Shown here piece after piece: positions 7,645 to 26,123 of a stretch of DNA of 32,000 bases (its first letter is position 1; each line of letters begins with the position of its first letter). Under the pieces are notes generated by a model. The model saw nothing but the letters and a program-made list of their open reading frames with translations. It had not been told where the DNA came from and did no database searches. Position numbers and translations under genes: made by a program. The stretch is from Promethearchaeota archaeon (GTDB lineage Archaea; Asgardarchaeota; Lokiarchaeia; Sigyniarchaeales; SOKP01), in the NCBI GenBank assembly GCA_030606485.1, contig JAUWGH010000003.1:30001-62000 (forward strand), written 5' to 3'.

Positions 7645-9054
7645 ATGTCAGACTCAGCTAAAAATATAATTAAATTTCTTTGTGACAGGTTTTTTGAATT
7701 AGATTATTATCCAACCAGTTTAAGTGGACTATTAGATTTACCAATAGATAAGTTGAGGGATTTTACGCAAAAGGATATTTCAAAATTTAATAAAATCGAT
7801 ATCAAAATATTACGTGATTTAACCACAATTAGTGAAGAAGAGTTTTTAGAACTTGCAACGCTAACAAACATGGATTTAAATATATTAAATAATGCAAAAG
7901 TTGCCGCTACTTTAATAGCAAATGCCTGGACTAAAAGAAAAGAATATATAAAAAAATCTCAGAGCAAAATCGTTGTAGCAGGGCTTGATTATGCAGGAAA
8001 AACATCTCTTATTAATAGATTAATGCATGATCATACTTATGGGGATTTGATTAATCTAGAGCCTACAATAGGCGCAAATATCCAAGAATTTGAATCGGAT
8101 AATTTAAACTTGATAATATGGGATCTTGGAGGGCAAAAAAGTAATTTAGAGGAATATATCCAAGAACCAGAGAAATTTTTTATCCAACTAGATGTTTTAT
8201 TTTTTGTATTTGATGCTCAAGATGATGTTCGCTATGAAGCTGCTCTTAAATATTTAAATGATATCTTAGAAATTCTTGAATTTTTAAAAGAAATTCCTTA
8301 TATCTTAATTCTTATAAATAAAGTAGATCCTGACATCGAAAAAGATCCCGATTTTCAAATCAAACTTGAATATTTATCTGATAAAATTACAAGAATCTTT
8401 CTTAAGAAACCAAAAAACGTAAACTATGAAATAATACAAACAAGTATTTATAATATTTATTCCCATGAGCCTGAAATCGTAAAAACCATAAAAAATGTTT
8501 TTTCAAAAGATATTATTGCGAAGAAAGAAAAAAGAGAAATGGAAATTGATGAAAAACTTCAGAGGATATTGGATATTAATTTTAAATTAATGGATAAAGT
8601 TGTTTCTGAACTCTCTGACATAAAAAGAGTTTTATATAAATTAACACCATCAGATCTAAAACAATCAATCTACGCCGTTCCTTTCGATAAAGTTCCTTCT
8701 GATTTTGTATCAACTCCCAAAAAAATTGCTAAAAAACCAATAACTGCAAAAATTGAAAAGAAAAAACCTAAAAAAAAGAAAAAATCTAAAAAATCCGCAG
8801 TTCCTACTAAAATTCCTAAACCTATAAAATTATCTCCGCAACCATCCAAAATTGGAGAAGCAATGGATAAATTAAGTCAAAAATTTGAAGAAAGCGAACA
8901 GATAATGGCATTGGAAAATTTAACACCACCCAAACCTCCTCCAAAACCACCGTCAATTCCCCCACAAAACATTATTAATCCTCGTAGCCAAATAATGTTA
9001 GAATTAAAAGATATCTTCAAAAAAAAGGGAATCGTGAAAAAAGACATTCCTTAA
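7645..9054 (+). CDS. Arf-like small GTPase with N-terminal HhH-like domain, coiled coil and Lys/Pro-rich C-terminal tail
   Basis: G1 GLDYAGKTS, G2 EPTIG, G3 WDLGGQ, G4 NKVD, G5 TSI. The N-terminus (LPIDKL...IKILRDL..ISEEEF) resembles helix-hairpin-helix folds. Tail ends PPKPPPKPPSIPP...RSQIMLELKDIFKKKG. Confidence 0.88.
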   Translation: MSDSAKNIIKFLCDRFFELDYYPTSLSGLLDLPIDKLRDFTQKDISKFNKIDIKILRDLTTISEEEFLELATLTNMDLNILNNAKVAATLIANAWTKRKEYIKKSQSKIVVAGLDYAGKTSLINRLMHDHTYGDLINLEPTIGANIQEFESDNLNLIIWDLGGQKSNLEEYIQEPEKFFIQLDVLFFVFDAQDDVRYEAALKYLNDILEILEFLKEIPYILILINKVDPDIEKDPDFQIKLEYLSDKITRIFLKKPKNVNYEIIQTSIYNIYSHEPEIVKTIKNVFSKDIIAKKEKREMEIDEKLQRILDINFKLMDKVVSELSDIKRVLYKLTPSDLKQSIYAVPFDKVPSDFVSTPKKIAKKPITAKIEKKKPKKKKKSKKSAVPTKIPKPIKLSPQPSKIGEAMDKLSQKFEESEQIMALENLTPPKPPPKPPSIPPQNIINPRSQIMLELKDIFKKKGIVKKDIP

Positions 9055-10616: not shown

Positions 10617-11045
10617 TTAAAACATATCTTTTTGAATAGAATTTTCAATTTCTTTATTAATATCATCAGTTGGTTTTGTGACACATCCTATTTCTGCTAT
10701 TACCTGAAGTCCTGTTGGACTTACCATTTCCTTTATATCGTTGCAAATCTTTGGTGGACTATTTGGATCAGCACCTGTCCCAAATACGATAAGTTTTTTG
10801 CCTTGTAAATTCAATTGGTTTACTTTTTTTAAGAATTTTTTAAAAGTCCTCGCCATTTGACCAGCATGAGTTGGAGTACCCAATCCTATGATTTCAAAAT
10901 CTTTAATAGAATCAATTGATTTGAATTCTTTATCCCGATAAATCTCCACCGAAACCTCCAGATCTTCCAATCTTTTCATAATTTTTTCTGCTAATAATTT
11001 TGTGTTCCCAGATCGTGTATCATAAATAATGATTGCATTTGACAT
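10617..11045 (-). CDS. Short-chain flavodoxin
   Basis: FMN phosphate loop IYDTRSGNTKLLAEKI, LGTPTHAG and VFGTG; 142 aa. Confidence 0.88.
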   Translation of the reverse strand: MSNAIIIYDTRSGNTKLLAEKIMKRLEDLEVSVEIYRDKEFKSIDSIKDFEIIGLGTPTHAGQMARTFKKFLKKVNQLNLQGKKLIVFGTGADPNSPPKICNDIKEMVSPTGLQVIAEIGCVTKPTDDINKEIENSIQKDMF

Positions 11046-11200
11046 TTTTTATCACTCTCTTAAAATAATGTAATATAATATCTGGAAGAACTTAAATAAC
11101 TTTTTTATTATTTAAAAAGGGAATTAAAAAATACTTAAAATTTCTTAAGTTCCATAACAAATAATCTTTTATTTTTAATGATTCCGGAATTTCTATAGGT

Positions 11201-11572
11201 TTAAGATAAAAATTCTTTTATAACTTCTTTGAATTCCTTGAGGTTTAATGGTTTTGAGAGCGATTTATTAAAACCAGCCCTAGCAAATATGGATTCCCTA
11301 TTACCTTCAACTGGAGAAGAAGAGGCGGCAATAATTGGAATCCCTTTAAATTTATCCATTTTGCGGAGTTCTTTACAAATCCCAATTCCTTTTAATTTTG
11401 GAAGGTTATTATCTAAAATAATAAGATCGGGATTCCCAGATTTTATCATTTCTAAGCCTTTATCTCCCCGAGTTTCATAGAAGACTTCAATATTTGGGAT
11501 TTTCTTGAAGATAGCTTTATATAATTTGATATTGGCTTCGTTATCTTCGATAATAAAAACTTTTTTTTTCAA
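11201..11572 (-). CDS. Single-domain response regulator (divergent DivK/CheY-like receiver)
   Basis: IIEDN, LIILDNNLP (phospho-Asp), AASS, SKP. TTG start preceded by a GGGGGT Shine-Dalgarno-like sequence. Confidence 0.88.
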   Translation of the reverse strand: MKKKVFIIEDNEANIKLYKAIFKKIPNIEVFYETRGDKGLEMIKSGNPDLIILDNNLPKLKGIGICKELRKMDKFKGIPIIAASSSPVEGNRESIFARAGFNKSLSKPLNLKEFKEVIKEFLS

Positions 11573-11670
11573 TGATTTACCCCCATATGCTAAATTATAA
11601 ACTTTTTGTCAAATAATAACATAATAATAATAAATTATTTCTATTTAAATTAAATGGAGAAATTCTTTAT

Positions 11671-12597
11671 TTGAAATATATTTTTGGACCAGTTCCATCT
11701 CGACGGTTGGGAAATTCATTAGGAGTTGATCCAATCCCTTCTAAAACTTGCAATTTTTCATGTATTTATTGTCAATTAGGAAGAACAACAAACTTAACAA
11801 ATACAAGAAAAAATTTTTTTCCAAAAGAAGATATAATTCAAGAAATGAAACTATCATTAAAAATTCACGAAAAAACGATGGATTTTTTAACTTTTGTAGG
11901 AAGTGGAGAACCAACATTATATAAGGATTTGAAAGACCTTATTTTAGCGGCAAAACGATTAACAAATAAACCAGTTTGTGTAATAACCAATGGAGCATTA
12001 TTGTATAACCGGGAAGTGCAAAATTCTTTAATGGAAGCAGATGTCATTATGCCAAGTTTAGATGCAGGAGATGAAGAAATGTTTAGAAGGATTAATCGAC
12101 CTCATCCTGATATAAAATTTGATAAGATGGTTGAAGGAATGATTGAATTTAGAGAAAAATTTCCCGGTAAAATCTGGATGGAGATAATGTTAATGAAGAA
12201 CATTAATGACGGAATCGAATCACTTAAAGTGATTAAAAAAATCCTAAATCAGATTAATCCAGACCGTACATATATTAATGTACCTATAAGACCTCCTGCA
12301 GAATCTTGGGTAATAAAGCCAAGTAAAGAATCAATTGAAAGATGCAAAGAAATATTAGGTGAAATCTATAATATCTCTTTTCCTGAAGAAGGGCAATTTT
12401 TTAGTCCGAGTTCTGACTTGGAAAATGAAATTTTATTATTAATAGAAAGACATCCGATGAGGCATGAACAAATTCTTAAAACATTCCCAAATTTCTCTGA
12501 AAAGAAAATATTAACAATCCTATATAAATTAGAAAAGAAAGGAAAAGTAATAAAAAAGAAATATGATGAGGTAATATTCTGGAATTTTATTCCGTAA
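11671..12597 (+). CDS. Radical SAM protein (COG0731-like Fe-S oxidoreductase)
   Basis: YIFGPVPSRRLGNSLGVD, CNFSCIYC (CxxxCxxC), GSGEPTL, ITNG, PSLDA, PIRPPAE. Confidence 0.9.
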   Translation: MKYIFGPVPSRRLGNSLGVDPIPSKTCNFSCIYCQLGRTTNLTNTRKNFFPKEDIIQEMKLSLKIHEKTMDFLTFVGSGEPTLYKDLKDLILAAKRLTNKPVCVITNGALLYNREVQNSLMEADVIMPSLDAGDEEMFRRINRPHPDIKFDKMVEGMIEFREKFPGKIWMEIMLMKNINDGIESLKVIKKILNQINPDRTYINVPIRPPAESWVIKPSKESIERCKEILGEIYNISFPEEGQFFSPSSDLENEILLLIERHPMRHEQILKTFPNFSEKKILTILYKLEKKGKVIKKKYDEVIFWNFIP

Positions 12598-15439
12598 TTA
12601 TTGAATCTGGTTTTATTGCGACTTTACCTAAATTTTTAGGTATTGAAAATTTAAATGTAGTCCCTCTTCCCAACTCGCTGGTAAAAGAGATATTTCCTCC
12701 ATGCATATTGATTAATTTCTTAGTTAAGGGTAATCCCAATCCGGTACCTGGAATTGAATCAACAAAAAATGAACTTACTCTTTGAAATTCCTTAAATATT
12801 AGATCATAATCTTCCTTTGCAATCCCTATTCCAGTATCAATAATATAAAATTCAAATTGATTTTCATTTTCCATAATTTTCAGCTTAATTCCCCCATCAT
12901 TGGTAAATTTAATTGCATTACTTAACAAATTGTAAAGTATTTCCTTTAATCTTATCTGATCTGCTTCAATAAATTTTTCCGTTTCTAATCCAATTACCTC
13001 AAATTTCAACTTTTTTTCATCAAGTAAGGGCTTAACTGTTGATCTAATCTGATTTATTAAATTATTTAAAGGAAATTTTTTAATATTTAATCTCATTTCA
13101 CCCGATTCTATTTTGGATATATCCAAAATTTGATTTATCATGTTTAATAAATGCTCACCAGAGGATCGAACGTCTTTAATAAAATCTTTTTGTTCTTTAT
13201 TTAAGCTCCCGTAAATTTCTTCCGCTAATAAATCTGAAAATCCAATAATTGCATTTAAAGGTGTTCTTAACTCATGAGACATGGTGGCCATAAATTCACT
13301 TTTAAATTGAGAAGATTTTAGAACTTCATTAACATAAAGATCTTTTTGTTTTATAGTTTCATTTAATTTTGTTATAGCATCATCCAATTCTATAGTTCTA
13401 ATTTTTACTTTTTCCTCTAATTCTTCAGCAAATTTTTTTATTAACGCCTCTGCTTTCTTTTTCTCTGTAATATCCCGAACTATACCATAAAATCCACACT
13501 TCTTATTTTGTGAATCATACTTTAAAGAAATAGAGAGTTCAATATTACTTTTTATTTCGTTCTTTTTAATGAGCTCAAAATCATAGATTTTAGCTATTGT
13601 TTCAGTTTTATAAACTTCATTAAAAGATTTAAAAACGCTTTCTGCAGTTTCTTCTGTTAAGAATTGCCGATAATTCAAACCCATTAATTCATCTTTTGGA
13701 TATCCAGTAATTTCGCACCAACTATCATTAAAAAATGTAAAATTTCCTTCAAGATCACTTTCATAATATCCTTCTTTAATATTTTCAAGAATAGTCCTAT
13801 GTTTTTCTTCAGATTCTCTTATTTTCCTTTGCGTTTCCTTTATTGTCGAAATGTCTTGAATTACAAAATAGAATAGTTTTTTTCCACTAATTTGTACTAT
13901 TGAAGAATAGAGCATAACAGAAATCAAACTTCCATCCTTTTTAGACAATGGAATTTCCAGTGGTTTTGGAGTGTTTCCCTTTATTATAGTTTTAAAATTT
14001 TTCATAATTTTTGAATAAGAATTTAAAGGAAATTTTCCAATATTTTTAAAATGCTTACCAATTATTTCATCTCTCTTATATCCAAACAAATTTTCAGCGC
14101 TAGGATTACAATCAAGAAATTTTCCTTGTGTATCCATTAGCGCTATAGATAAGGGAGTATTTTCGAATAGATGTCTAAATTTTTGTTCAGATTCTTTTAC
14201 TTTTTGTTCTGCCTTCTTGCGTTCTTCCTCAAGATCTATCATATTTAAACCAAAAGCAATATCTTGAGCAACCTCCTTAAATAAATTTTGTTCATCCAAA
14301 TCATTAACTAAATCTCGAGGAATAGATGCAGATAACCAACCGAAAATTTTTTCTCTGTGTTCCAATCGAATAGTCATCGCTGCTCTACCCTCATATACTT
14401 TCGATAAAGGACAATCTGTGCAAGTTAAATTAGGATTTTCATTGATAATTAAATCTGATTGCACTATTGCCTTTCTGCTGCATTCAGTCATTTCACCTTT
14501 CTTTAATAATTCAATCATGGATGAAAAATTTTCACCCAAACCTGCTTCAGCGGTTAATATAACATTATTTGAACTGTTTAAGAAGGCAATCCAAGCGTTA
14601 AAATAGCTTCGAGTTTCTATAAGATTATTACAGGCGCCTTGAAGCAATCTCTTACGATCTTTTTCTTTAATTATAAGCTGATTTACATTGCTAATGACTC
14701 GTAATACAGAAGAGATATGTTTTATTTTCTCCTCAGCCTTCTTACGCTGAGTATTATCTCTCAGTACTGCAATATAAAAATCTCCCTTATCATCTTTTAA
14801 TAATTGCCCATTGACAGAAACAGGAACATAATACCCATCTTTATGTCGAACTCTAAATTCAGTAGAGATTTTTTCTCCGGTAGCATTTGCTTTTTTCAAT
14901 GCTTCTGCAACATTTAATAAATCATCTGGATGGATATAATTTAAACTACTTAAGCCAATCATTTCCTCTTGTTTATACCCAAATATATCAAAACATTGAG
15001 GACTTATATAAGTTATCTTCGTTTTTAAAGTAGTCTCTAATATAATATCAGAAATGTTATTAATAAATCCACGATATCTTTTTTCGGATTCCTTTATTTT
15101 TTGTTCTGCCTTTGAGATCTGCTTACTTAAAAAACCAACAAAATAACCAGTAAATATAAATATAATCCCTCGAATTAAGTTATCGATTATTGTATTCAAT
15201 CCAATAAAAAATGAAAAGAAAATTAATGAACTAGTCAAAAATATAGGCACAATTAAACCTCTTTTTTTCCACCAAAGACATGCTAAAATAGTGGGAATAT
15301 AAAAAAAATGAGTAAATATCGTGCTAATTTTAAGTATGAAGAGAAAATAATATTCTAAAAAGCATAAAGCAGATAAGACTGCAATTATAATAAGAATTTC
15401 AAATTTTTCTTCAGGGTTTTTAATTTTTAATCCAATCAT
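12587..15439 (-). CDS. Membrane-bound sensor histidine kinase: TM - PAS - GAF - PAS - PAS - HisKA - HATPase
   Basis: Hydrophobic N-terminus (3-4 TM), PAS repeats ending RDNTQRK/QDIS/RDITEKK, GAF with CTDCP, H-box MSHELRTPLNAI, N-box NLLSNAIKFT, DTGIGI, GTGLGL. Overlaps the convergent radical SAM gene by 11 nt. Confidence 0.95.
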   Translation of the reverse strand: MIGLKIKNPEEKFEILIIIAVLSALCFLEYYFLFILKISTIFTHFFYIPTILACLWWKKRGLIVPIFLTSSLIFFSFFIGLNTIIDNLIRGIIFIFTGYFVGFLSKQISKAEQKIKESEKRYRGFINNISDIILETTLKTKITYISPQCFDIFGYKQEEMIGLSSLNYIHPDDLLNVAEALKKANATGEKISTEFRVRHKDGYYVPVSVNGQLLKDDKGDFYIAVLRDNTQRKKAEEKIKHISSVLRVISNVNQLIIKEKDRKRLLQGACNNLIETRSYFNAWIAFLNSSNNVILTAEAGLGENFSSMIELLKKGEMTECSRKAIVQSDLIINENPNLTCTDCPLSKVYEGRAAMTIRLEHREKIFGWLSASIPRDLVNDLDEQNLFKEVAQDIAFGLNMIDLEEERKKAEQKVKESEQKFRHLFENTPLSIALMDTQGKFLDCNPSAENLFGYKRDEIIGKHFKNIGKFPLNSYSKIMKNFKTIIKGNTPKPLEIPLSKKDGSLISVMLYSSIVQISGKKLFYFVIQDISTIKETQRKIRESEEKHRTILENIKEGYYESDLEGNFTFFNDSWCEITGYPKDELMGLNYRQFLTEETAESVFKSFNEVYKTETIAKIYDFELIKKNEIKSNIELSISLKYDSQNKKCGFYGIVRDITEKKKAEALIKKFAEELEEKVKIRTIELDDAITKLNETIKQKDLYVNEVLKSSQFKSEFMATMSHELRTPLNAIIGFSDLLAEEIYGSLNKEQKDFIKDVRSSGEHLLNMINQILDISKIESGEMRLNIKKFPLNNLINQIRSTVKPLLDEKKLKFEVIGLETEKFIEADQIRLKEILYNLLSNAIKFTNDGGIKLKIMENENQFEFYIIDTGIGIAKEDYDLIFKEFQRVSSFFVDSIPGTGLGLPLTKKLINMHGGNISFTSELGRGTTFKFSIPKNLGKVAIKPDSIITE

Positions 15440-15464
15440 GATGTTGCATCAGTTATTACCATAT

Positions 15465-16103
15465 TTATTTTATTGAGTTTGTTGAAAGCATCTCATCAAT
15501 AGATTTAGTTATTTCTTTACATGATTCAAGCATCATTTCTGTGTAATTCACAACTGTTTGCTCAGACAGATTTCCTTGTTCTTTCCCTTCTAAAATTAAT
15601 TCGCAAAATCCTTGAATAGTATTAATTCCACTTCTAATTTGCATAGTAAATGACTCTAATGGTAAAACTTCATCTTTTTTCATATATATTTCATTTATTT
15701 CACTAAAAAATTTTTCAAATGATTTTTTATCATCTGACAAAATTTGCTTGTTTCCTAATTTTAGGAATTCCATTTCAATTCTTCGGAAATGAATTATTGG
15801 GATTAGAGGATATGCTACATCCCGAAGAATTATCAGTGAATATAATTGTTTCCCTCCTCGAGCACTAGGATCTTCAATTTCAATTTTACAGATCTGGGAA
15901 TAAAATTGACTAAAATCCAAAATGACAAATTTATTTTTAGTATTTAATGCATCTCTCAAAAGATTTTTAATGAATTGCTCTTCCTTAAGTGGAAAAGATG
16001 AATATAAAGTTCTGGGACCTAAGATTTGATCATATTTTCCAATAATTAAAATAAATTGATATTTATCCAGCCCTTCTTTAAAATTTAGGTAAGGATCTGA
16101 CAC
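15465..16103 (-). CDS. Longin/uDENN-like (FLCN/SMCR8-type) domain fused to a His-less DHp-like domain
   Basis: ILIIGKYDQILGPRTLYSSFP (uDENN-like start); KIEIEDPSARGGKQLYSLIIL (cf. FLCN FFIKDSLARGFQRWYSII); C-terminal TMQIRSGINTIQGFCELILEG aligns with the neighbours' SHELRTPLNAILGFSQLLLDG. GTG start with GGAG upstream. Confidence 0.65.
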   Translation of the reverse strand: MSDPYLNFKEGLDKYQFILIIGKYDQILGPRTLYSSFPLKEEQFIKNLLRDALNTKNKFVILDFSQFYSQICKIEIEDPSARGGKQLYSLIILRDVAYPLIPIIHFRRIEMEFLKLGNKQILSDDKKSFEKFFSEINEIYMKKDEVLPLESFTMQIRSGINTIQGFCELILEGKEQGNLSEQTVVNYTEMMLESCKEITKSIDEMLSTNSIK

Positions 16104-16156
16104 TTTTTCTCTCCATTTTCATATTAAAATTATTTTTATTTCAAATTTATTACCTT

Positions 16157-18463
16157 TTATTTAATTGTAGATATTTTTTGCAACTTTTCTTCAGTTAATG
16201 TGATTTTAGGAATTGTAAAAAAGAATGTGGTTCCTTTATCTAATTTACTTTCAAACCAAATTTCCCCTCCATGAAGATTTACTAGTCTTTTCGTTAATGC
16301 TAAACCCAACCCTGTCCCCTGAACCTGTTTTATCTTATCACCTTCTACTCTTCCAAATTCTCTAAAAACTACATCATAATCCTTCTTTGCGATACCAACA
16401 CCAGTATCTTTAATTTGAAATTCCCAATGATCGATTCTCTGAATACCACGAAGTGAAACATTTCCTTTCTCTGTAAATTTAAATGCATTACTTAAAATAT
16501 TATATATTATTTGTTTGAAACGTACAGGATCAGCAATTAAACAATCTTGTTCATTTATACCTTTAACTTTAAATTCCAAATTTTTGTTTGAATATAATGG
16601 TTTTATTACTGCATTAATTTCTACAATTAATTCATTTAAATCAAATTTCTGCATATCTAATTTTAATTTTCCAGCTTCAATTTTTGAGATATCTAAAATA
16701 GAATTTATTAAACTCAGTAAATGATCTCCCGCAGAATTGATATCATTTATGAAATCTTGTTGATCTACATTTAAATCCCCATATGATCCATCTAATAACA
16801 ACTGTGAAAAACCTAATATTGCATTCAACGGTGTTCTTAATTCATGAGACATTGTAGCCATAAATCGTGATTTAATATCCAAGGAAGCAAGTAATTGATC
16901 AAATAACATTTCTCGATTCTTTTCAAAATTCTTTCTATCAGAAATATCGGAAAAAAAAGATTGAATGATTATTTGATCTTCAATTCTTAATATGGTTGAC
17001 GAAACTTCTATATACAATAGGTTTCCATGCTTTTCTTTTATCAATGCTTCGACTTTATTTAAAATTGATAGATCATAAATATCTTCTTCGTAATGTTTTT
17101 TAACTAAATCCATAAATTCTGGGTCAAATAACTCGTATATATTGTGTGTTAATAATTCTTCTCTATTATAGTTAAATAAATTCTCGGTTTCTCTATTAGC
17201 TTTTAAAATTTCACCCTTTTGATTTAATAGAAAAATCCCCAATGGAGCTGTTTCATTAAGCGCATGGATTTCTTGGAGTGATTTTTCCAATTCCATTATT
17301 TCTTCTTCTGATTTTTTTCGGGCTGAAATATCTTGTATAATAAGTTGTATTAATTTTTTTTTACCTATTTTAAATAAAGCAAATTGCATATTCACCCATA
17401 TAAGGCTTCCATCCTTCTTATTTACTTGAATATCAATAGGCTCTGGAACCTCTCCTTTATTAATTTCTTTAGATTTATTTTTTATTTCTGGAAGATATTT
17501 TGGAGGAATAATAGAATTTTGACTATAAAATTTATTGATTAACTCTTCCTTTTTATATCCAAATATTTTTTCTGTAGTATTATTGCAATCAATAATCACA
17601 CCTTCCAAATTTAGTAGGATTATAGAATTTGGAGAATTTTCGAATAGATATCTGAATTTTTCTTCTGACTCTTTTTTCTTTTTTTCCGTCTTCTTGCGTT
17701 CCGTAATATCTTCGCAATTCGTTAGGAGTACAGTTTTACCACCCAACTCTATTAAGTCTATATTCATTAGAGCTGTATAAATTGTGCCGTCTTTTTTTTT
17801 CAATTTTACTTCAAAATTATGGACCTTATCAGTTTCATGCAATTTATTAAGTAATTTTTTACGTTCATTTGGATCAACATAAGTAGAAATAAGTCTTTGA
17901 GTGTTTAACTCATCTAAGGTAAAACCTGTTATTTCTTGCATTTTTTTGTTTATAGCAAGAATATTACCCTCAAGGTCAGCAATCCCAATCCCTATTGGAG
18001 AAGAATTAAATAAAAATTGATATTTTTCCTCAGATTTTTGTATTTGGCTAGTTAATTTTTCCATTTTAATCCATGTTCGATTTCTTTCAATAGCATGTTG
18101 GATTGAACGTAATAATATATTGCTACTAACCTCATTTTTAATCAAGTAATCTTGAGTTCCTGCTTTAACCGCTTCTACGCCTATTTGAAAATCATCATTT
18201 ACAGTTAGAACAATAATTGGAATATTTTGAACCTTTTCACAAGTCTTAAATACAGTATTAAGTCCAGAGCTATCTGGAAGGTTTAAATCTAAGAGAATTA
18301 CGTCATAATTTTTATTATCAATACGTTTAAATCCATCCTTAAGGGTTTCAACCCAAACTAAACTAAATTTTAAATTTTTAATCTCTTTTAGCATTTCTTC
18401 TATTAATCGAGCATCACCTGGATTATCTTCGATTAACAGAATATTAATTAAATTATCTAACAT
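16157..18463 (-). CDS. Cytoplasmic hybrid histidine kinase: REC - PAS x3 - HisKA - HATPase
   Basis: LLIEDNPGD, LLDLNLPDSSG, three PAS repeats (EDITERK, QDISARK, SDISDRK), MSHELRTPLNAI, NILSNAFKFT, DTGVGI, GTGLGL. Confidence 0.95.
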   Translation of the reverse strand: MLDNLINILLIEDNPGDARLIEEMLKEIKNLKFSLVWVETLKDGFKRIDNKNYDVILLDLNLPDSSGLNTVFKTCEKVQNIPIIVLTVNDDFQIGVEAVKAGTQDYLIKNEVSSNILLRSIQHAIERNRTWIKMEKLTSQIQKSEEKYQFLFNSSPIGIGIADLEGNILAINKKMQEITGFTLDELNTQRLISTYVDPNERKKLLNKLHETDKVHNFEVKLKKKDGTIYTALMNIDLIELGGKTVLLTNCEDITERKKTEKKKKESEEKFRYLFENSPNSIILLNLEGVIIDCNNTTEKIFGYKKEELINKFYSQNSIIPPKYLPEIKNKSKEINKGEVPEPIDIQVNKKDGSLIWVNMQFALFKIGKKKLIQLIIQDISARKKSEEEIMELEKSLQEIHALNETAPLGIFLLNQKGEILKANRETENLFNYNREELLTHNIYELFDPEFMDLVKKHYEEDIYDLSILNKVEALIKEKHGNLLYIEVSSTILRIEDQIIIQSFFSDISDRKNFEKNREMLFDQLLASLDIKSRFMATMSHELRTPLNAILGFSQLLLDGSYGDLNVDQQDFINDINSAGDHLLSLINSILDISKIEAGKLKLDMQKFDLNELIVEINAVIKPLYSNKNLEFKVKGINEQDCLIADPVRFKQIIYNILSNAFKFTEKGNVSLRGIQRIDHWEFQIKDTGVGIAKKDYDVVFREFGRVEGDKIKQVQGTGLGLALTKRLVNLHGGEIWFESKLDKGTTFFFTIPKITLTEEKLQKISTIK

Positions 18464-18662
18464 ATTTTTATTATTTTATGTTATTTAGTTTAATAAGTAA
18501 TTACGATAATACGAAAAATGATAATTTTTAATGATATAGAAATATTGGATGAGAGAGAGACACATAGATTATTCCTCTTTTTACCTCATTAGTTATATAA
18601 GAATTTCTAGAATTAATCGTGTTAAATTCATTAGCATTTTCTTTCAATTAAAATTTATCAAA

Positions 18663-19121
18663 TTAAGTTATTTCTGGCCCATCAGGTGGTAATTTAACAA
18701 TCGTAAACCAGAAATCTCCAATAGATTTCACCACTTTTATAAATTGCTCCATATCTATAGGTTTGGAGATATAACAATTCGCATGTAAATTGTATGTTTT
18801 TATGACATCCTCTTCAGATTTCGAAGTTGTTAAAATTACGACCGGAATTCGCCTTAAATCTTTATCTTGCTTAATTTCAGCTAAAACCTCACGTCCATCT
18901 TTCTTAGGTAAATTTAAATCAAGAAGAATTACATCTGGTCGTGGTGAATTTTTAAATTTTTCTTTTTTAAATAAAAAATCCATTGCCTCTATACCATCCA
19001 ATGCTATGTGTAATTTATTAGCAATTTTACATTCTTTAAGAGCTTCTTTTGTCAAACGCACATCTCCTGGATTATCTTCAATTAACAAAATTTCTACCAT
19101 TTTATGTTTTTGTTTTGTCAA
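18663..19121 (-). CDS. Rcp1-like single-domain response regulator
   Basis: LLIEDNPGDVRL, LLDLNLPKKDGREVL, IPVVILTTS, ANCYISKP. TTG start with GAGGT upstream. Confidence 0.93.
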   Translation of the reverse strand: MTKQKHKMVEILLIEDNPGDVRLTKEALKECKIANKLHIALDGIEAMDFLFKKEKFKNSPRPDVILLDLNLPKKDGREVLAEIKQDKDLRRIPVVILTTSKSEEDVIKTYNLHANCYISKPIDMEQFIKVVKSIGDFWFTIVKLPPDGPEIT

Positions 19122-19143
19122 AACTTTTACCTCATTTTTTTCT

Positions 19144-21084
19144 TTAAATTGCTTCTTTTTTCATATAATTATTTTTTTTTATTGGAATAATAAAATGAAA
19201 TGTTGAACCCTTTCCAACTTCTGATTCAACCCAAATTTTTCCATTATGTCTTTCTATAATTCTTTTACATAGGGCTAGACCTATTCCAGTTCCAAGATAT
19301 TCAGACTTTCTGTGTAAACGTTGGAATATAATAAAAATACGATCAAAATATTCTGGATCTATGCCGATCCCGTTATCTTTTACTGAGAATTGCCAGTTAT
19401 TTTTTTTTTTTTTTGCTGAAATATGTATTCTCACGGGATCTTTACTGCGGAATTTTAATGCATTATCAATCAAGTTTTGAAACACTTGTATTAATTGTGT
19501 TTTATCAGCCAATATGTTTGGTAAATAGTCATGGGTTATCTCTACATCATTTTCTTTTATAGTTTCATGTAAATTGAAAAGAACATCTTTTAAAACCTCT
19601 TCACAGTTAATAACTTCAAAAGGATTACCACGAGTCTGAATTCTTGAATATTCTAACAAATCTTCAATAAGAATTTTCATATTATTTGCTCCATCCACAG
19701 CAAATTTAATGAACTCATTTGCATCCTCATCCAGCTTATCTTTATAACGCTTTGCTAGGAGTTGGGTATAACTTGTCACCATTCTTAATGGCTGTTGTAA
19801 ATCATGAGATGCAACATAAGCAAATTGTTGTAGTTCTTCATTGGAACGTTTTAAAGCATTTAATGTATCTTTCATTGCATTTTCTGCTATTATACGCTCG
19901 GTGATGTCCCGGAATATAAGAACAACACCAATAATATTTCCTTTATCGTCTTTTATCGGAGCACCACTATCGGCAATCGGTATTTCCTTTCCTTCTTTAG
20001 ATATTAAAACAGTATGATTCGCCAGACCAACAACAACGTCCTCTCGAATTACTCTCGATACGGGACTTTCGATTTGCTTGCGAGTTTTCTCGTTAACGAT
20101 GTTAAAAATATCTCCTACGGGTTTTCCCGTGGCTTCTTCTTGCTTCCAACCAGTTAAAGACTCGGCAACAGGATTTAAAAACGATATCTTACCTTTTGTG
20201 TCGGTAGCAATTACCGCATCGCCAATACTATTAAGTGTCGTAGAAAGCCATTCTTCGGATTCTTGGAGCTTTTTTGTGCGCTCTTCCACCAATTCTTCAA
20301 GATGCTCGCGATATTTCCTTAATTCCTCCTCCGCTTTCTTTCGCTCCGTAATATCTTGTCCAACTCCTTGAATCCCAATTGCCTTTCCATCAGTATCTTT
20401 TACCGCAGTAACATTCCAAGAAATCAATACCCTTTCTTTTTTTCCCTTTTTCCAAAAATATTGCTCAAAACCTTCTTGACTCATATTTGGATCTATTCTA
20501 ACCTTCTGCCTTACGGGTTCAGCCCTTTCTAATTCATTTTTCTCAAGCATTGATCTTATATCCTTACCAATCATCTCCCCTTCTTCATATCCTAATACTT
20601 TACAGGTGTATGGATTCATTAACGTTACTCTCCACTCATCATCGTGTGCCAAAACGATGGCATTGGAATTATTTATTAACATTTGGTATCTATGCAATTC
20701 TGCCTCTATCTTCTTACTCTCAGTAATATCTCTGAAAACCTCAATAACTGCTGGATTACCATAAAAATCTTCTACGAAAAAAGCGTCAATTCCAAAATAT
20801 TTTGTTTCTTTGGTTGAAGGAAGTGTTGAAATTTTTTCGAATCTCATCCTACGTTGTTCTATTGTTAAAGATTTTTCAATAGGACAAGATTCACAAGGTT
20901 TTGAGCGCTTAAATAAAGTTTCATAGCAGTTTTTTCCAACCAAATTCTTTCCGAATTCTTTGAGAGCATTTTCATTTGCAAATAATATCTTATTCTTCTG
21001 AGAAATAACCAAAATTGGATCTTTCATATTTGAAAAGATTAACCCTATTTTTTCCAGAGATTTTTTTAACTCTTGTGTTGCCAT
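19144..21084 (-). CDS. Cytoplasmic PAS x3 histidine kinase with a Cph1-type kinase core
   Basis: FAYVASHDLQQPLRMV, QNLIDNALKF, DNGIGI, FQRLH, GTGIGLA. PAS1 carries CY...PCESCP. AGGTGA Shine-Dalgarno upstream. Confidence 0.95.
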   Translation of the reverse strand: MATQELKKSLEKIGLIFSNMKDPILVISQKNKILFANENALKEFGKNLVGKNCYETLFKRSKPCESCPIEKSLTIEQRRMRFEKISTLPSTKETKYFGIDAFFVEDFYGNPAVIEVFRDITESKKIEAELHRYQMLINNSNAIVLAHDDEWRVTLMNPYTCKVLGYEEGEMIGKDIRSMLEKNELERAEPVRQKVRIDPNMSQEGFEQYFWKKGKKERVLISWNVTAVKDTDGKAIGIQGVGQDITERKKAEEELRKYREHLEELVEERTKKLQESEEWLSTTLNSIGDAVIATDTKGKISFLNPVAESLTGWKQEEATGKPVGDIFNIVNEKTRKQIESPVSRVIREDVVVGLANHTVLISKEGKEIPIADSGAPIKDDKGNIIGVVLIFRDITERIIAENAMKDTLNALKRSNEELQQFAYVASHDLQQPLRMVTSYTQLLAKRYKDKLDEDANEFIKFAVDGANNMKILIEDLLEYSRIQTRGNPFEVINCEEVLKDVLFNLHETIKENDVEITHDYLPNILADKTQLIQVFQNLIDNALKFRSKDPVRIHISAKKKKNNWQFSVKDNGIGIDPEYFDRIFIIFQRLHRKSEYLGTGIGLALCKRIIERHNGKIWVESEVGKGSTFHFIIPIKKNNYMKKEAI

Positions 21085-21133
21085 TTTTTATTTCACCTTT
21101 TTTTAGAACCAATAATTTTTATTAAAAAATTTA

Positions 21134-21349: not shown

Positions 21350-21423
21350 CATATTCTAACGAATTTTCATCTTATTTTTATGTGGTTGAATAAAATTGAC
21401 AAATTTTAATTTAACAATATCTG

Positions 21424-21439
21424 ATAACAAATTTGTTAT
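21424..21439. promoter_or_regulatory. Perfect 16-bp palindrome ATAACAAATTTGTTAT (candidate operator)
   Basis: Self-complementary; shares the ATAACAAA core with the inverted repeat at 22151-22233. Confidence 0.45.
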
Positions 21440-22459: not shown

Positions 22460-23320
22460 ATGAATGAAAAAAAAACTGAAGAAATGGAAAAATATGAAAA
22501 AATGACTGGCAAACACGCAATTTGGCGTGGAGTAATAACCGAAGGATTTAAAAAATGGCAACGAGGAGAAAAGATATACGATAGATTTAAGGAGAGAATA
22601 GCTCTTTATGTATCTAAAGAAACTAAAGAAGATTGGCAGAATTTCGTAAGAGATTCAAAATACACTTCAATTTCTAAACTAATAAGGGATGCTGTAAACA
22701 ATTTCATTGAAAAAAAAATAAAAGTAATAGAGCATGAGAATTATAATAAAGGTGATCAACTTAGAAATCTTTCAGATATCTCTTATGTTTTAAAAGAAGC
22801 ATTAACTTCAATAAAAGGATTTTCCCAATTATTAATTGAAAATTATAAGGAAGAACTCAATGAGGAAATCATTTTAAAAATAAAAGAAATTTTTGATAAA
22901 AGCATCTTTCTTGAAAACAAGATTAATGAATCGTTAGAATACTCTTATATTAGTAAATCACAATATGACATTTTACTAATTGAAGATGATATATCAACAA
23001 TAAAGTTATTAAAATCATTTTTTGAAAGGAAGGGTTATAGTTGTAAAGGTGTCATTAGTGGTTCTAAAGGATTGAATGAATTAAAGAGAAATATTCCTAG
23101 AATTATTTTATTGGATATTATTTTACCTGATATTAATGGATTTGATGTTTGCAAAATAATAAAATCTAATAAAATATATCAAAATATTCCCATCTTTCTA
23201 TTAACTGCTGTATCAAGTCTAAAAGTTGAGCATTTTATTAAAAAAGCAAAAGTAGAAGGTTATATCTCAAAACCTTTTGATTTTTCGGATTTTAATTCAA
23301 TATTTAAATATTTAAATTAA
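22460..23320 (+). CDS. AIWRG-motif - RHH-like - DHp-like (His->Tyr) - REC protein, copy 1
   Basis: RIALYVSKETKEDW...SISKLIRDAV (ribbon-helix-helix pattern); SYVLKEALTSIKGFSQLL (H-box-like, Tyr109); intact REC (IEDD, LLDIILP, LTA, SKP). Confidence 0.8.
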   Translation: MNEKKTEEMEKYEKMTGKHAIWRGVITEGFKKWQRGEKIYDRFKERIALYVSKETKEDWQNFVRDSKYTSISKLIRDAVNNFIEKKIKVIEHENYNKGDQLRNLSDISYVLKEALTSIKGFSQLLIENYKEELNEEIILKIKEIFDKSIFLENKINESLEYSYISKSQYDILLIEDDISTIKLLKSFFERKGYSCKGVISGSKGLNELKRNIPRIILLDIILPDINGFDVCKIIKSNKIYQNIPIFLLTAVSSLKVEHFIKKAKVEGYISKPFDFSDFNSIFKYLN

Positions 23321-23333
23321 TTTTTAATAATTT

Positions 23334-23663
23334 TTAATCTCTTAAAATGGGAATAGAAAAAGAAAATTTACTTCCTCTATTTCTTCCTGCTGATTCCATC
23401 CAGATATTTCCCCCGTGTAATTCAATAATCTTTTTCGCAATATATAGACCGAGCCCTGTACCCTCAATTCCAACATCCCAACCTTGACCATATCTTTCAA
23501 TTTTTCCAAATTGTTTAAATAATTGATTCTTTTCCTCAGCGGAAAACCCAATTCCATTATCTTCTATTGAGATTATAAAAAAGTTAGATTTTACTTCAGA
23601 AAAGATTTTAATTTCTCCTCCAAGAGATGTGTAGTTAATTGCGTTTATTAATATAAGCATCAT
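23334..23663 (-). pseudogene. Stand-alone or 5'-truncated HATPase_c (kinase catalytic domain) without H-box
   Basis: INAINYT (degenerate N-box), EDNGIGF, LFKQFGK, GTGLGL, HGGNIWMES, GSKFSF. An in-frame TAA lies 9 codons upstream of the first ATG. Confidence 0.7.
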
Positions 23664-23783
23664 AAAATTAAAATTGGAAAAATTAAATTAAATTTTGTGT
23701 TAATAATTGAAAAAACTTATATTATACTTTGTGATAATAATAATCTAGAAATGTAATAAAAATAGTGAATCTTTCCTTTTTTA

Positions 23784-24659
23784 TTGGTGATTTCAATTTT
23801 GAGTAATGAAAAAAAAAGTAGTGAAATGGAACAATATGAAAAAGAGACAAGGAAATATGCTATTTGGCGTGGTATTATAACTGAAGGATTTAAAAAGTGG
23901 CAACGAGGAGAAAAAATTTATGATAGAGATAAAGAGAGAATATCACTCTATATTGCAGAAGAAACTAAAGATAAATGGCAGAATTTTATTGAAAGTAGTA
24001 AATATTCTTCTATTTCAAAATTGATAAGAGATGCTGTTGATTTTTTTATTAATGAGAAATTAAGAGTAGGTGTTGATGAAAAACTTAAAAAACTAGGACC
24101 TTTAAAATCAATTACAAATCTTTCTCATGATTTAAAAGAGGCTTTAACTTCGATAAAAGGATATTCACAGTTATTGCTTGAAAATTATAAAGATAATTTG
24201 ACAGAAGATGTATTATCAAAAATTAAGGAGATTTTTAATAAAAGTATATTTCTTGAAAATAAAATAAAGGAAGTTTTGGAAAAAGGAGAAATTGGAAAGA
24301 GACAATATGACCTTCTATTAATCGAAGATGATCCATCGACTATAAAATTATTAACAACTTTTTTTGAAAGTAAAGGTTATTCTAGTAGAGGGGTAATTAG
24401 TGGTTCTAAGGGAATAGATGAATTAAAAGCAAACATTCCAAAATTAATATTGTTAGATATAATATTGCCAGATATAAATGGATATGATGTTTGTAAAATG
24501 ATAAAATCTGAAGAGAAGCTTAAAAATATACCAATTTTCTTCTTAACAGCTATTCCAAGTTCGGAAGTTGAGAAAAGAATTAAAGATGCTGGTGCTGATG
24601 GTTATATTTTAAAACCATTTGATTTTAGTGATTTTGAAATTTTATATACATATCTATAA
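23784..24659 (+). CDS. AIWRG-motif - RHH-like - DHp-like (His retained) - REC protein, copy 2
   Basis: Paralogue of 22460-23320; SHDLKEALTSIKGYSQLL (His115); intact REC (IEDD, LLDIILP, LTA, LKP). Confidence 0.82.
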   Translation: MVISILSNEKKSSEMEQYEKETRKYAIWRGIITEGFKKWQRGEKIYDRDKERISLYIAEETKDKWQNFIESSKYSSISKLIRDAVDFFINEKLRVGVDEKLKKLGPLKSITNLSHDLKEALTSIKGYSQLLLENYKDNLTEDVLSKIKEIFNKSIFLENKIKEVLEKGEIGKRQYDLLLIEDDPSTIKLLTTFFESKGYSSRGVISGSKGIDELKANIPKLILLDIILPDINGYDVCKMIKSEEKLKNIPIFFLTAIPSSEVEKRIKDAGADGYILKPFDFSDFEILYTYL

Positions 24660-24806: not shown

Positions 24807-26114
24807 ATGGTTATAGGCATAGCATTATTTAGTTGGGATAAGAAGGTGGGTGCGGTTTTAGAGATTAAACATCCTGAAAATCTTGATTTATCACAAAATT
24901 TAATTAACAAAATATATATGACTCATGCTTATAGGCAGGAAAATCAAAAAGAAGAGTTAATGGAAATTAATCTGGAGAATCAAATTATTCTTAGTTACTG
25001 TGATATGTCTAAAGTTGTAAAACTTGGGTATGAAATAATAATCCTTATTGTTCATGAGAAGGAGAAAATACATCTTAAAAATTTAAAATCTGAATTATTT
25101 GAATTTGCGAGAGAAGTGTTAAATAAACCTAAAATTGAGAGAAAGAAGTATTTTTTTGAAAATCTCGATTTGTTTTTTAAAGAAACAGTAAAGAAAAAGA
25201 TATTATTAGTTGGACGAGCAGCTACAGGAAAATCTAGTATTAAGCAAGTTATTTTTGAAGGAAAGATGCCACAGGAGTTATTATCTAATCCCCTTGAGCC
25301 AACTCGTGGTTTAACACCCTCTGTTTATTCATGGTTAGATCTAGATTTGGGTATTTTCGATTCAGCTGGTCAAGAACTGGATTATTTATTAGATGATAAA
25401 AATGAACAAACCTTAGCATTCGAAAATACTGATATTGTAATATATATGTTTGATTACTTAACGTGGATTGAAAATAACGAAATAATAATAAAAGATATAA
25501 AAAAAGTTTCAAGAATTATTAAACAAGAGTCTTATAATGCTAAAATTATATTATTTCTACATAAAATTGACTTAATTAAGGAAGAAAACAGAGAACAAAA
25601 CATAAAAAATATCCAGCGAGAAATAAAAGAACAATTGAATTTGCAGATTTATTTTACAAGTCTTTATCCAAATTTAATTTATAATATTTATAATGCCTTT
25701 TATGAGATTTTAAGTAATTTTTCCAAGGAGACTATTTATTTTAAAGAGGTTTTGGATGAAAAAATTAAAGATAATTCAAAATCTATGTGTTTTATAACTA
25801 ATCAAAATAGTAGTATAGTTGTTCAGACAATGTCTAATGATTTCAATTTTAAATTAATTAACCAAATTCATAGATTAATTGCTCAATTTGACCAATCATT
25901 TGAAGACATGAGCATTAATGATAATATCGATTATATGATACTTTCAAGTTTGAAAAATTTTAATATTATTATGAAATTTCTTAATCTCTCGAATTATGAT
26001 CTCAAAAATTTAATTTTAATCTCTGAAACAATTAGTATCATTCAATTAATAGAATTTTGTGAGGAAATTAAAAATACTTTGAATAGATATTTTTATAAAG
26101 ACATTCAAAAATGA
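24807..26114 (+). CDS. Rag/Gtr-like GTPase with N-terminal uDENN/longin-like and C-terminal roadblock-like domains
   Basis: G1 GRAATGKSSIKQVIF, EPT, DSAGQ, LHKID, TSL (HKxD is the Rag-type G4). N-terminus IALFSWDKKVGAVLEIKHP; C-terminal MCFITNQNSSIV-led region. Confidence 0.8.
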   Translation: MVIGIALFSWDKKVGAVLEIKHPENLDLSQNLINKIYMTHAYRQENQKEELMEINLENQIILSYCDMSKVVKLGYEIIILIVHEKEKIHLKNLKSELFEFAREVLNKPKIERKKYFFENLDLFFKETVKKKILLVGRAATGKSSIKQVIFEGKMPQELLSNPLEPTRGLTPSVYSWLDLDLGIFDSAGQELDYLLDDKNEQTLAFENTDIVIYMFDYLTWIENNEIIIKDIKKVSRIIKQESYNAKIILFLHKIDLIKEENREQNIKNIQREIKEQLNLQIYFTSLYPNLIYNIYNAFYEILSNFSKETIYFKEVLDEKIKDNSKSMCFITNQNSSIVVQTMSNDFNFKLINQIHRLIAQFDQSFEDMSINDNIDYMILSSLKNFNIIMKFLNLSNYDLKNLILISETISIIQLIEFCEEIKNTLNRYFYKDIQK

Positions 26115-26123
26115 GAATCTAAA

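Follow-up and report, generated by a model that had tools for sequence, protein, structure and literature searches.

The gene examined here, T, encodes a protein of two parts, an N-terminal longin domain of the FLCN/NPRL2 type and a C-terminal degenerate HisKA/DHp hairpin, and there is strong support for its membership in a conserved, patchily inherited gene cluster that contains a Rag-like GTPase, an Arf-like GTPase, PAS histidine kinases, receivers, DHp-REC proteins and a Rag-like GTPase pair. The interpretation that I favour, at a probability of about 45%, is that T is a dimeric longin regulator of the Rag- and Arf-like GTPases of this cluster, wired to a dedicated two-component set.

Gene T and its surroundings

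T lies in a 32-kb stretch of archaeal DNA, the whole of which was analysed and is called the window below; the coordinates of T, its domains and its neighbours are collected in Table 1. The open reading frame and residue numbering of an earlier sequence-only reading hold, and the two motifs that it singled out, E77-D-P-S-A-R82-G-G-K-Q-L-Y-S-L-I-I-L and T153-M154-Q-I-R-S-G-I-N-T-I-Q-G-F166, are present as written. A GGAG-type ribosome-binding site stands 6-12 nt 5' of the start codon, and the gene is single copy in its own genome. The four GTPase genes of the window and the two kinases that flank T on the same strand, at distances of 53 and 25 nt, are also present as that reading had stated. 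The datasets listed with the window's DNA are all cold-seep or marine-sediment metagenomes, and none is RNA.

Table 1. Positions in the window of gene T, its parts and the neighbouring genes.
Feature	Position	Strand	Remarks
Gene T (longin + pseudo-DHp)	15465..16103	minus	open frame, 212 aa, GTG start
Longin domain of T	15678..16061	minus	residues ~15-142; AF2 model, VIA and Foldseek matches
GP motif G29-P30	16014..16019	minus	start of strand 2 (strand 29-35)
R82 codon CGA, candidate arginine finger	15858..15860	minus	beta4-beta5 loop
Degenerate HisKA/DHp hairpin of T	15474..15668	minus	residues 146-210
M154 codon ATG	15642..15644	minus	phospho-acceptor His position of H-box
Upstream hybrid kinase, REC-PAS x3-HisKA-HATPase_c	16157..18463	minus	768 aa; 53 nt before T
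Downstream kinase, PAS x3-HisKA-HATPase_c	12587..15439	minus	950 aa; 25 nt after T
REC	18663-19121	minus	farther upstream of T
PAS kinase	19144-21084	minus	farther upstream of T
REC	21656-22024	minus	farther upstream of T
Two DHp-REC proteins	22460..24659	plus	286 and 291 aa
Orphan HATPase_c-only ORF	23334-23663	minus	between the two DHp-REC genes
Gtr1/RagA-family GTPase pair	24807..27629 (24807-26114, 26124-27629)	plus	435 and 501 aa
Arf-like GTPase	7645..9054	plus	469 aa
GTPase gene	9293-9844		one of four in the window

The window makes up 0.85% of the genome and holds 6 of its 15 kinase/DHp ORFs, 6 of its 11 REC ORFs and 4 of its 67 GTPases. An RHH-HisKA-REC architecture is known from Lokiarchaeum (PMC5847659). 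The Gtr1/RagA-family pair also closes the cluster in other genomes, and the Arf-like GTPase of the window is the orthologue (57% identity) of a GTPase of about 493 aa that most other genomes have next to T in divergent orientation.

A longin domain with a GP motif and a candidate arginine finger

The AF2 model of T (pLDDT 83) comprises a longin fold and then a helical hairpin. Its N-terminal elements run in the order two strands, a helix, three strands and then helices 103-114, 118-122 and 126-140, which, together with the structure matches, identifies the longin fold (beta-beta-alpha-beta-beta-beta-alpha-alpha). The top solved structures found with VIA were chains 8fw5_B of a GATOR1 complex (Z 11.6) and 6nzd_H of an FLCN complex (Z 11.2), the alignments spanning 126-130 residues at 2.7-2.9 A, and Foldseek assigned a probability of 1.0 to the GATOR1 and FLCN entries 6ces_N, 7t3b_B and 8dhb_J. 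An Atlas search with T placed NPRL2 at TM 0.62 and folliculin at TM 0.55; every match of the Atlas search by features fell below 0.9, and these are leads only. Non-GAP longins (CPLANE, Mon1-Ccz1, TRAPP and SNARE longins) follow close behind at Z 8-10.9, so the fold by itself cannot tell GAP-type from GEF-type longins.

The Pfam Folliculin model (PF11704) detects T at E=0.0016 and 18.7 bits, under its curated cut-off of 23.3. It matches all 27 aligned relatives at E<=0.1 (best 3.8e-5) and also gives sub-threshold matches in 3 of 14 control genomes. Sequence searches of the PDB, made with the family profile and with residues 14-112, returned chance matches only (CheY, a viral nucleoprotein).

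According to PMC12290439, a GP motif and an arginine in the beta4-beta5 loop are specific to GAP longins and absent from other longins. T has both features. Its glycine and proline lie where that paper defines the motif, in the loop before strand 2 or at the start of it, and among 128 relatives G29 is kept in all and P30 in 127. R82 falls between strands 67-77 and 85-95 of the AF2 model and is kept in 126 of the 128; an arginine is also present in relatives of only 34-37% identity (P0128, P0131 and P0137). The arginine finger of SMCR8 and FLCN sits in the betaL4-betaL5 loop, and R82 agrees with these residues (FLCN R164, SMCR8 R147) by position only. Because the whole family is highly conserved, with 47 invariant columns in alignment A1, the invariance of R82 is weaker evidence than it appears. 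The arginine is missing from two distant relatives that retain the rest of the protein, both of which are directly flanked by kinases and not by GTPases. The longin domain proposed from the sequence is thus borne out by the GATOR1 and FLCN structure matches, the GP motif and the loop arginine, and R82, whose conservation had been named as a check, proves to be kept.

A C-terminal hairpin of HisKA descent

That the C-terminus of T derives from the dimerisation/phosphotransfer hairpin of HisKA, with loss of the acceptor histidine, is strongly supported. In the AF2 model helices 146-176 and 181-210 form a hairpin like that of HisKA, with an H-box-like helix that retains R157, N161, I163, G165 and F166. 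The Pfam HisKA model (PF00512) matches T at E=0.0038 and 17.7 bits, under the curated cut-off of 26.9, and matches 9 of the 27 aligned relatives. When compared by hhalign with the DHp of 15 neighbouring kinases, a profile of the C-terminal part aligned at P=3.4e-5 with L/M154 on the histidine column, and against all 4834 ORFs of the genome kinase/DHp ORFs, of which there are 15 in total, supplied 6 of the 8 top non-self matches. These three results uphold the claim of a HisKA-like C-terminus. A fold search with the hairpin was uninformative, the DesK DHp (Z 8.2) appearing amid many unrelated hairpins that scored equally.

M154 aligns with the histidine of MSHELRTPLN in a flanking kinase, and the H-box of T further differs from that of HisKA in having Q for E and S-G for T-P. 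The acceptor column of 128 relatives reads L in 88, M in 32, H in 4, I in 3 and K in 1; of the four that bear histidine, two read HHEIR and two SH[HK][VI]R. The conserved acceptor histidine by which both HisKA and Spo0B/ChpT-type phosphotransfer domains are recognised is therefore absent from 124 of the 128, and the description of the domain as His-less stands for T and for these relatives, but not absolutely, as four carry the residue. T ends at residue 212, after the hairpin, and unlike HisKA kinases it has no catalytic ATP-binding (HATPase_c) domain, so it does not qualify as a histidine kinase. A search for longer fused forms of T gave none at E<=0.001, which counts as weak evidence, and an exhaustive search of representatives for fused forms found only two, both PAS-fused and of 388-391 aa. 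Homologue and fusion searches found no full-length longin-HisKA-HATPase relative.

Predicted homodimer

Two T chains are predicted to join through their hairpins into a symmetrical four-helix bundle like that of a DHp domain. The homodimer prediction has an ipSAE of 0.61 (0.64, 0.61 and 0.57 in separate runs) against 0.00 for the best control, with run-to-run contact agreement of at least 100% and partner pLDDT of at least 74; among proteins of solved structure, 20 of 30 pairs and 1 of 23 single chains reach the mark for a dimer. The predicted interface is made of residues 153-206 only, all of them in the hairpin, and there is no confident contact between the longin domains. Chains paired through the hairpin would therefore present two longin domains. 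The invariant residues S158, G159, N161, T162, G165 and F166 lie outside the predicted interface. This score may, however, reflect the model's memory of solved DHp dimers.

A pairing of T with the N-terminal domain of the 435-aa Rag-like GTPase was also considered, and was dropped on sequence grounds after hhalign with the T family gave P=0.29 and no similarity.

Gene order, co-inheritance and distribution

Gene order was surveyed at 48 Lokiarchaeial T loci, in genomes that are GTPase-rich and, where they are kin, are non-independent samples. Among the 46 loci not running off the contig, the directly downstream gene on the same strand was a Rag-like GTPase in 28 and a PAS histidine kinase in 14. 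The gap between T and the downstream GTPase is mostly 6-46 nt, and there is strong support for the view that this Rag-like GTPase is usually co-transcribed with T. The upstream gene is a GTPase at 27 of 42 loci, and usually an Arf-like GTPase stands divergent on this side of T. Within three genes on either side of T, 43 of the 48 loci have a GTPase, 39 a kinase/DHp gene and 35 both. The order of T followed by a 294-aa Rag-like GTPase persists at 37% identity, and a PAS-fused T paralogue and a Rag-like GTPase are divergent neighbours. The cultured Promethearchaeum syntrophicum MK-D1 has an orthologue of T (DSAG12_02452) with a single-domain REC gene directly upstream; a REC of about 122 aa follows the Rag-like pair. 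The layout of the window, in which two kinases enclose T, is rearranged and belongs to the minority. The sequence-only reading had described T as embedded in a kinase operon, which misplaces the emphasis, since the tightest partner in most genomes is the Rag-like GTPase; the more general link that it drew between two-component systems and small GTPases is strongly supported by conserved gene order and co-occurrence.

A hand count over 154 genomes of the order found T together with the N-domain of its Arf-like neighbour in 49, T only in 7, the Arf-like domain only in 6 and neither in 92; as these genes share contigs, their joint absence from fragmented MAGs is partly an assembly effect. Top-scoring HisKA kinases (E<=1e-19), which often adjoin T, occur in 49 of 52 genomes with full T versus 14 of 102 without it, in a count made by hand at a cut-off picked post hoc. 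Since HisKA genes are present in all 154 genomes, T is not tied to two-component systems in general, and perhaps it is tied to one high-scoring kinase subfamily, as delimited by that same post hoc cut-off. T shares in the decay of its cluster, as stop codons in G216 and G227 attest.

The 297 homologues of T are of uniform length and 55-100% identity and are under strong purifying conservation, and the gene is intact and single copy in about 50 species. T is confined to one order, Lokiarchaeales, and was absent from about 245 Asgard genomes searched outside that order. It thus arose within this lineage and is not ancestral to the eukaryotic complexes that it resembles.

Comparison with known systems

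T shares its longin fold with eukaryotic FLCN (which acts on RagC/D), NPRL2 of GATOR1 (RagA/B) and SMCR8 of C9orf72-SMCR8 (Arf/Rab). Like these proteins it has a GP motif before strand 2 and an arginine in the beta4-beta5 loop, and it is genetically associated with exactly both of their client classes, Rag-like and Arf-like GTPases. Unlike them, T has neither a DENN nor an NPRL2 C-terminal domain, and a kinase-derived hairpin stands in that place; its sequence scores under the Pfam cut-offs, and its GAP role is putative. Eukaryotic longin GAPs act as longin heterodimers, and the SMCR8 longin is inactive by itself, whereas no equivalent of the partners FNIP, NPRL3 and C9orf72 was found for T.

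The sequence-only reading knew of no description of such a fusion. In kind this was wrong. Fusions of Asgard NPRL2-like longins with two-component domains appear in a 2020 preprint by Liu et al. (10.1101/2020.10.19.343400), and Asgard longins with a GP motif and arginine finger were described in 2025 (PMC12290439); T shares its domain class and its phylum with both. The surmise that two-component systems feed eukaryote-like longin regulators with possible GAP activity is likewise in print. The exact architecture of T may be drawn in Fig. 5c of Liu et al.; the portions of the preprint and of PMC12290439 that were available contain no family-level account of the His-less DHp fusion, its dimer or its cluster. 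Liu et al. state that the majority of ESP genes lie outside conserved neighbourhoods, and Tran et al. (PMC10933270) that the GTPase genes of MK-D1 in general do not share operons with longin genes.

Actinobacterial conservons combine a kinase (CvnA), a roadblock/MglB-type protein (CvnB), CvnC and a Ras-like GTPase (CvnD) (PMC13621833, PMC13343842). In contrast to the T cluster, these are bacterial and encode an MglA/MglB-type pair, not Rag/Arf-like GTPases with an FLCN-type longin, and their roadblock protein has no fused DHp; the comparison does not imply that the clusters are homologous.

Proposed role of T and alternatives

As a dimeric regulator, T would be a soluble adaptor whose longin domains bind the Rag- and Arf-like GTPases of the cluster and set their nucleotide state, while the kinase/receiver set would give input to T or take its output. 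In the genome of the window T, which stands between two kinases, would have lost its co-transcribed GTPase and would act on the Arf-like GTPase (7645-9054), the Rag-like pair (24807-27629) or both. The most likely mechanism would be R82-stimulated GTP hydrolysis; GAP activity is something that I only infer, and this step taken alone I regard as possible, not probable. A fuller scheme is rather unlikely: here T would be a longin-type GAP of the Rag/Arf-like GTPases that a His-Asp phosphorelay gates directly, the pseudo-DHp either pairing with the DHp of a kinase or serving as a dock for a phospho-receiver.

Two alternatives turn on what the hairpin binds. The sequence-only reading had the His-less hairpin form mixed four-helix bundles with the DHp of a neighbouring kinase. 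T would in that case shut the kinase down, alter its response or be recruited by it, with the longin half relaying the signal to or from a GTPase. The Pseudomonas RetS-GacS system offers a parallel, in which a DHp acts by pairing with the DHp of another kinase and not by productive phosphorylation, but RetS is a full hybrid kinase and the pairing of T with a kinase is only a proposal. Such a bundle would suit the homology of the hairpin to the DHp of the flanking kinases, with its five retained H-box residues, the kinases found directly downstream or within three genes, and the co-occurrence with the top-scoring HisKA kinases, post hoc cut-off included. It is made improbable by the homodimer prediction, which passed and whose surface a mixed bundle would itself need, and by the nearest gene, which is mostly a GTPase and not a kinase. 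It is also distinctly unlikely that a (phospho-)receiver of the cluster docks on helix 1 of the pseudo-DHp without phosphotransfer and so switches the longin half on or off. HisKA kinases contact receivers just after the histidine position, as in HK853-RR468-type complexes, and it is there that the invariant residues outside the predicted dimer interface lie; single-domain REC genes moreover recur in the cluster. Kinases, however, conserve these same residues on structural grounds as well, and the phosphatase-type motif H-E-x-x-T/N is degenerate in T, reading [LM]-Q-x-x-S.

Other alternatives concern the longin half and the protein as a whole. T might be a scaffold, a GEF-type platform or an effector in which R82 is a structural or binding residue and not a catalytic finger, and the signal may then run from the GTPase to the two-component proteins. 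Most longin/roadblock dimers bind GTPases in this way, non-GAP longins match the model nearly as well as GAP longins, and the absence of a found heterodimeric partner and of contact between the longins in the predicted dimer is consistent with it, as is the loss of the arginine from two relatives that keep the remainder of the protein. I nevertheless judge it rather unlikely, given the near-invariance of both the GP motif and R82, a combination reported as GAP-longin specific in PMC12290439; the kinase-flanked setting of the arginine-less relatives, two cases only, also fits an arginine that matters where there is a GTPase partner. That T is the sensor and DHp piece of a dismembered longin-input kinase, with no function of its own, would account for the orphan HATPase_c-only ORF of the window and for the histidine of a few relatives. 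This is disfavoured as very improbable by the number, uniform length and purifying conservation of the homologues, by intact single copies in so many species, by the failure of the searches to find a full-length longin-HisKA-HATPase relative, and by the decay of T along with its cluster.

Significance

Asgard genomes encode dozens of small GTPases as well as longin and roadblock proteins, and their gene layout seldom reveals which regulator belongs to which GTPase (PMC10933270). The T family departs from this pattern: a short-gap operon, conserved order and co-inheritance link its candidate GAP-type longin with one Rag-like GTPase, one Arf-like GTPase and a specific set of kinases and receivers. 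It opens the questions of whether Asgard longins with a GP motif and arginine act as GAPs, which GTPase they serve, and how a bacterial-type phosphorelay talks to eukaryote-like GTPases. Given the linked cluster and the MK-D1 orthologue, all three are testable with a handful of recombinant proteins. If the rather unlikely fuller scheme, with a phosphorelay that gates T as a GAP, is true, Lokiarchaeales would run a pathway from sensor kinase to longin GAP to Rag/Arf switch, whose logic would be a prokaryotic counterpart of the control of Rag GTPases by GATOR1 and FLCN, with kinases in place of the eukaryotic nutrient sensors.

Gene context and distribution of T

The main result on T, the 212-aa protein with an N-terminal longin domain and a C-terminal His-less DHp (HisKA) hairpin, is its conserved gene context. 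In the window, T has a GGAG-type site 6-12 nt 5' of its start and lies between two same-strand kinases, separated from them by the gaps that the sequence-only reading claimed; the residues quoted there (E77...R82...L93 and T153-M154...F166) are correct on translation. The window also carries four GTPase genes, three further REC genes, a third kinase and two DHp-REC genes. Because 6/15 of the host genome's kinase/DHp ORFs and 6/11 of its REC ORFs (and 4/67 of its GTPase ORFs) fall within these 32 kb, positions 10617-27629 are the organism's main two-component hub. The ORF with a HATPase_c domain alone may be a split-off kinase catalytic domain.

T and other features of the window
Feature	Position	Strand	Remarks
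T gene	15465-16103	minus	open frame, GTG start, 212 aa
Upstream kinase, REC-PAS-HisKA-HATPase	16157-18463	same strand as T	53 nt before T
Downstream kinase, PAS-HisKA-HATPase	12587-15439	same strand as T	25 nt after T
Arf-like ortholog	7645-9054	plus	57% identity
HATPase_c-only ORF	23334-23663	minus	109 aa, without DHp, between two DHp-REC genes
A2 match	26181-26399	plus	inside 501-aa Rag-like GTPase

When ORFs for kinases, GTPases and REC proteins were mapped across 48 non-redundant T loci, a usual order emerged: on the upstream side a DHp-REC gene (~285 aa, opposite strand) and an Arf-like GTPase (~493 aa, divergent), then T and, on its strand, a Rag-like GTPase (~293 aa), followed by one PAS kinase or two, two paired Rag-like GTPases (~437 and ~512 aa) and finally a ~122-aa REC. 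Among the 46 loci not running off their contig, 28 have a GTPase and 14 a kinase as the same-strand neighbour downstream of T; the upstream gene is a GTPase in 27/42 loci, and both classes occur at most three genes from T in 35/48. The gap from T to the downstream GTPase is mostly 6-46 nt, and the order of T followed by the Rag-like GTPase is still seen at 37% identity. This Rag-like GTPase has intact GKT, DLAGQ, HKxD and TSI motifs, and the upstream GTPase carries the Arf-type WDLGGQ motif and NKxD. In the host genome and in L006, a relative with 95% identity, the 293-aa GTPase is missing and T stands between kinases.

All 297 homologs of T (207-275 aa), which collapse to just 24 representatives at the 50% level, are unnamed or annotated 'hypothetical'. 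Their sources include Promethearchaeota/Promethearchaeia MAGs and Promethearchaeum syntrophicum MK-D1, whose ortholog is the hypothetical protein DSAG12_02452 / QEE16622.1; a literature search found no paper naming it. The 3.75-Mb host genome carries one copy of T, which is present in 56/400 genomes of the phylum, all 56 in one order (46/134 in family f1, 8/14 in f3, 1/4 in f4), and absent from ~245 Asgard genomes outside that order. PAS-longin paralogs of 388-391 aa (P0131, P0137 and L055 2549-3724) have an H-box-like helix between PAS and longin and a C-terminal helical part without the IRSGINTIQGF motif; one of them has a 472-aa Rag-like GTPase as its divergent neighbour and adjoins Cas-family genes.

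The proposed link of T to small GTPases holds, by conserved neighbourhood and by co-occurrence. By hand count, 49 of 154 genomes of the order have both T and the Arf-like N-domain, seven T alone, six the Arf-like domain alone and 92 neither, a co-occurrence inflated by shared contigs and common ancestry. The T frame is interrupted by stops in two genomes, G216 (C82:67615-68288) and G227 (C25:17043-17531), both of which lack the high-scoring HisKA kinases that adjoin T elsewhere; the neighbouring Arf-like gene is fragmentary as well in G216.

In the Arf-like family adjoining T, the G domain is followed by a conserved basic segment and a run of prolines. Positions 18-98 of A2, a profile built from the first 100 residues of this GTPase, also match the N-terminal part of ~505-525-aa Rag-like GTPases in several genomes (E ~1e-7), so the 'unique' N-extension of the Arf-like neighbour may be a degenerate piece of G domain.

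Domain composition of T

In the AF2 model of T (pLDDT 83), an N-terminal helix is followed by two strands, one helix, three more strands and three more helices, which makes the N-terminal half a longin fold. Among ~48,000 solved chains the top match is 8fw5_B of the GATOR1 complex (Z 11.6, 130 residues, 2.9 A), the FLCN-complex chain 6nzd_H scores Z 11.2, and other longins score below these at Z 8-10.9. Foldseek returned GATOR1 and FLCN entries at probability 1.0, and an Atlas search NPRL2 (TM 0.62) and folliculin (TM 0.55). The Pfam Folliculin match is below threshold (E=0.0016, 18.7 bits vs a cut-off of 23.3); it recurs in 27/27 aligned relatives (best 3.8e-5) but is not relied on alone, because the model also gives sub-cut-off matches in 3/14 control genomes.

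GAP longins are defined by a GP motif placed at strand 2 or immediately ahead of it, next to the arginine finger (PMC12290439); in SMCR8/FLCN that finger lies in the betaL4-betaL5 loop. In the AF2 model of T, G29-P30 stand at the opening of strand 2 and R82 in the beta4-beta5 loop, and across relatives they are near-invariant (G29 128/128, P30 127/128, R82 126/128). Position thus confirms the longin assignment along with both class motifs, R82 being a candidate catalytic residue; fold matches and motifs bear out the folliculin/SMCR8 class first read from the sequence.

Residues 146-210 form a helical hairpin in the AF2 model, with a fold that is generic when taken alone. Its likeness to a kinase dimerisation domain is found by Pfam HisKA (E=0.0038, with 9/27 relatives matching), by BLASTP against the upstream kinase's H-box (E=1e-4) and by hhalign of the T-family profile with DHp domains from 15 neighbouring kinases (P=3.4e-5), which places the His column on position 154. 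When the C-terminal family profile was run against all 4834 ORFs of the host genome, kinase/DHp ORFs, of which there are 15, took six of the top eight non-self places. Of 128 relatives, 88 have Leu at position 154, 32 have Met, four His, three Ile and one Lys. Two close relatives retain HHEIR, and two distant ones show SH[HK][VI]R and lack the Arg. The HisKA matches, the alignment of the His column and the His-keeping relatives together show that this domain is a degenerate DHp derived from a true H-box, and the claim of a His-less dimerisation domain is upheld.

The two distant relatives, P0129 and P0133 (L057 1911-2528 and L058 8001-8585), have Glu or Lys for the Arg, keep the His in S-H-[HK]-[VI]-R, and are directly flanked by REC-PAS kinases, not GTPases; because there are two cases, this association of Arg loss with kinase neighbours is suggestive only. 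Another protein, P0145 (556 aa, without a catalytic domain), has six tandem HisKA-like repeats (Pfam HisKA E=1.6e-37 over six stretches), with the acceptor His replaced by Phe in each (S-F-[NK]-L-R-[TS]).

Discussion

The claim that this fusion lacks description does not stand as written: Asgard NPRL2-like longins, some of them joined to domains of two-component systems (Liu et al., 10.1101/2020.10.19.343400), and Asgard longins with GP motif and Arg (PMC12290439) are in print. Some Asgard longins are reported with both GP motif and arginine finger, and their possible GAP activity has been raised (PMC12290439); Liu et al. surmise that growth control remains centred on two-component systems. 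RHH-HisKA-REC proteins of Lokiarchaeum have been listed (PMC5847659), and MK-D1 GTPase genes generally lie outside operons with longin genes (Tran et al., PMC10933270). Bacteria offer a precedent in the conservons, operons that combine a kinase with a roadblock protein and a small GTPase (PMC13621833, PMC13343842). The literature search found no text on the His-less DHp family to which T belongs, on the dimer or on the conservation of the cluster. The observation on T is confirmed and its first interpretation partly supported: the domains and the GTPase link are upheld, but the proposed mixed bundles with the kinases, like the claim of novelty, do not stand as written.

Architecture, conserved motifs, DHp ancestry and gene linkage are observed; how the two halves work together may be pictured in three ways. 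Plain dimerisation of the hairpin may provide the coupling. Two copies of T are predicted to form a homodimer (ipSAE 0.61; runs 0.64, 0.61 and 0.57; best control 0.00), with between-run contact agreement of at least 100% and partner pLDDT of at least 74, a mark reached by 20/30 proteins solved as pairs and 1/23 solved as single chains. On each chain, residues 153-206 make up the confident interface, a predicted symmetrical four-helix bundle, with no confident contact between longin domains. Because solved structures include many DHp dimers, this result shows likeness to them and may stem from examples that the predictor has memorised. Coupling may also come through putative pairing of the hairpin with a kinase DHp, or through a receiver that would dock onto the side of helix 1 that is both exposed and conserved (S158, G159, N161, T162, G165, F166).

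The kinases and receivers of the cluster would give input to T or take its output. The paired longin domains would act on the cluster's Rag/Arf-like GTPases, and for that step on its own I favour GTP hydrolysis stimulated by R82, tentatively and at a probability of about 0.3.
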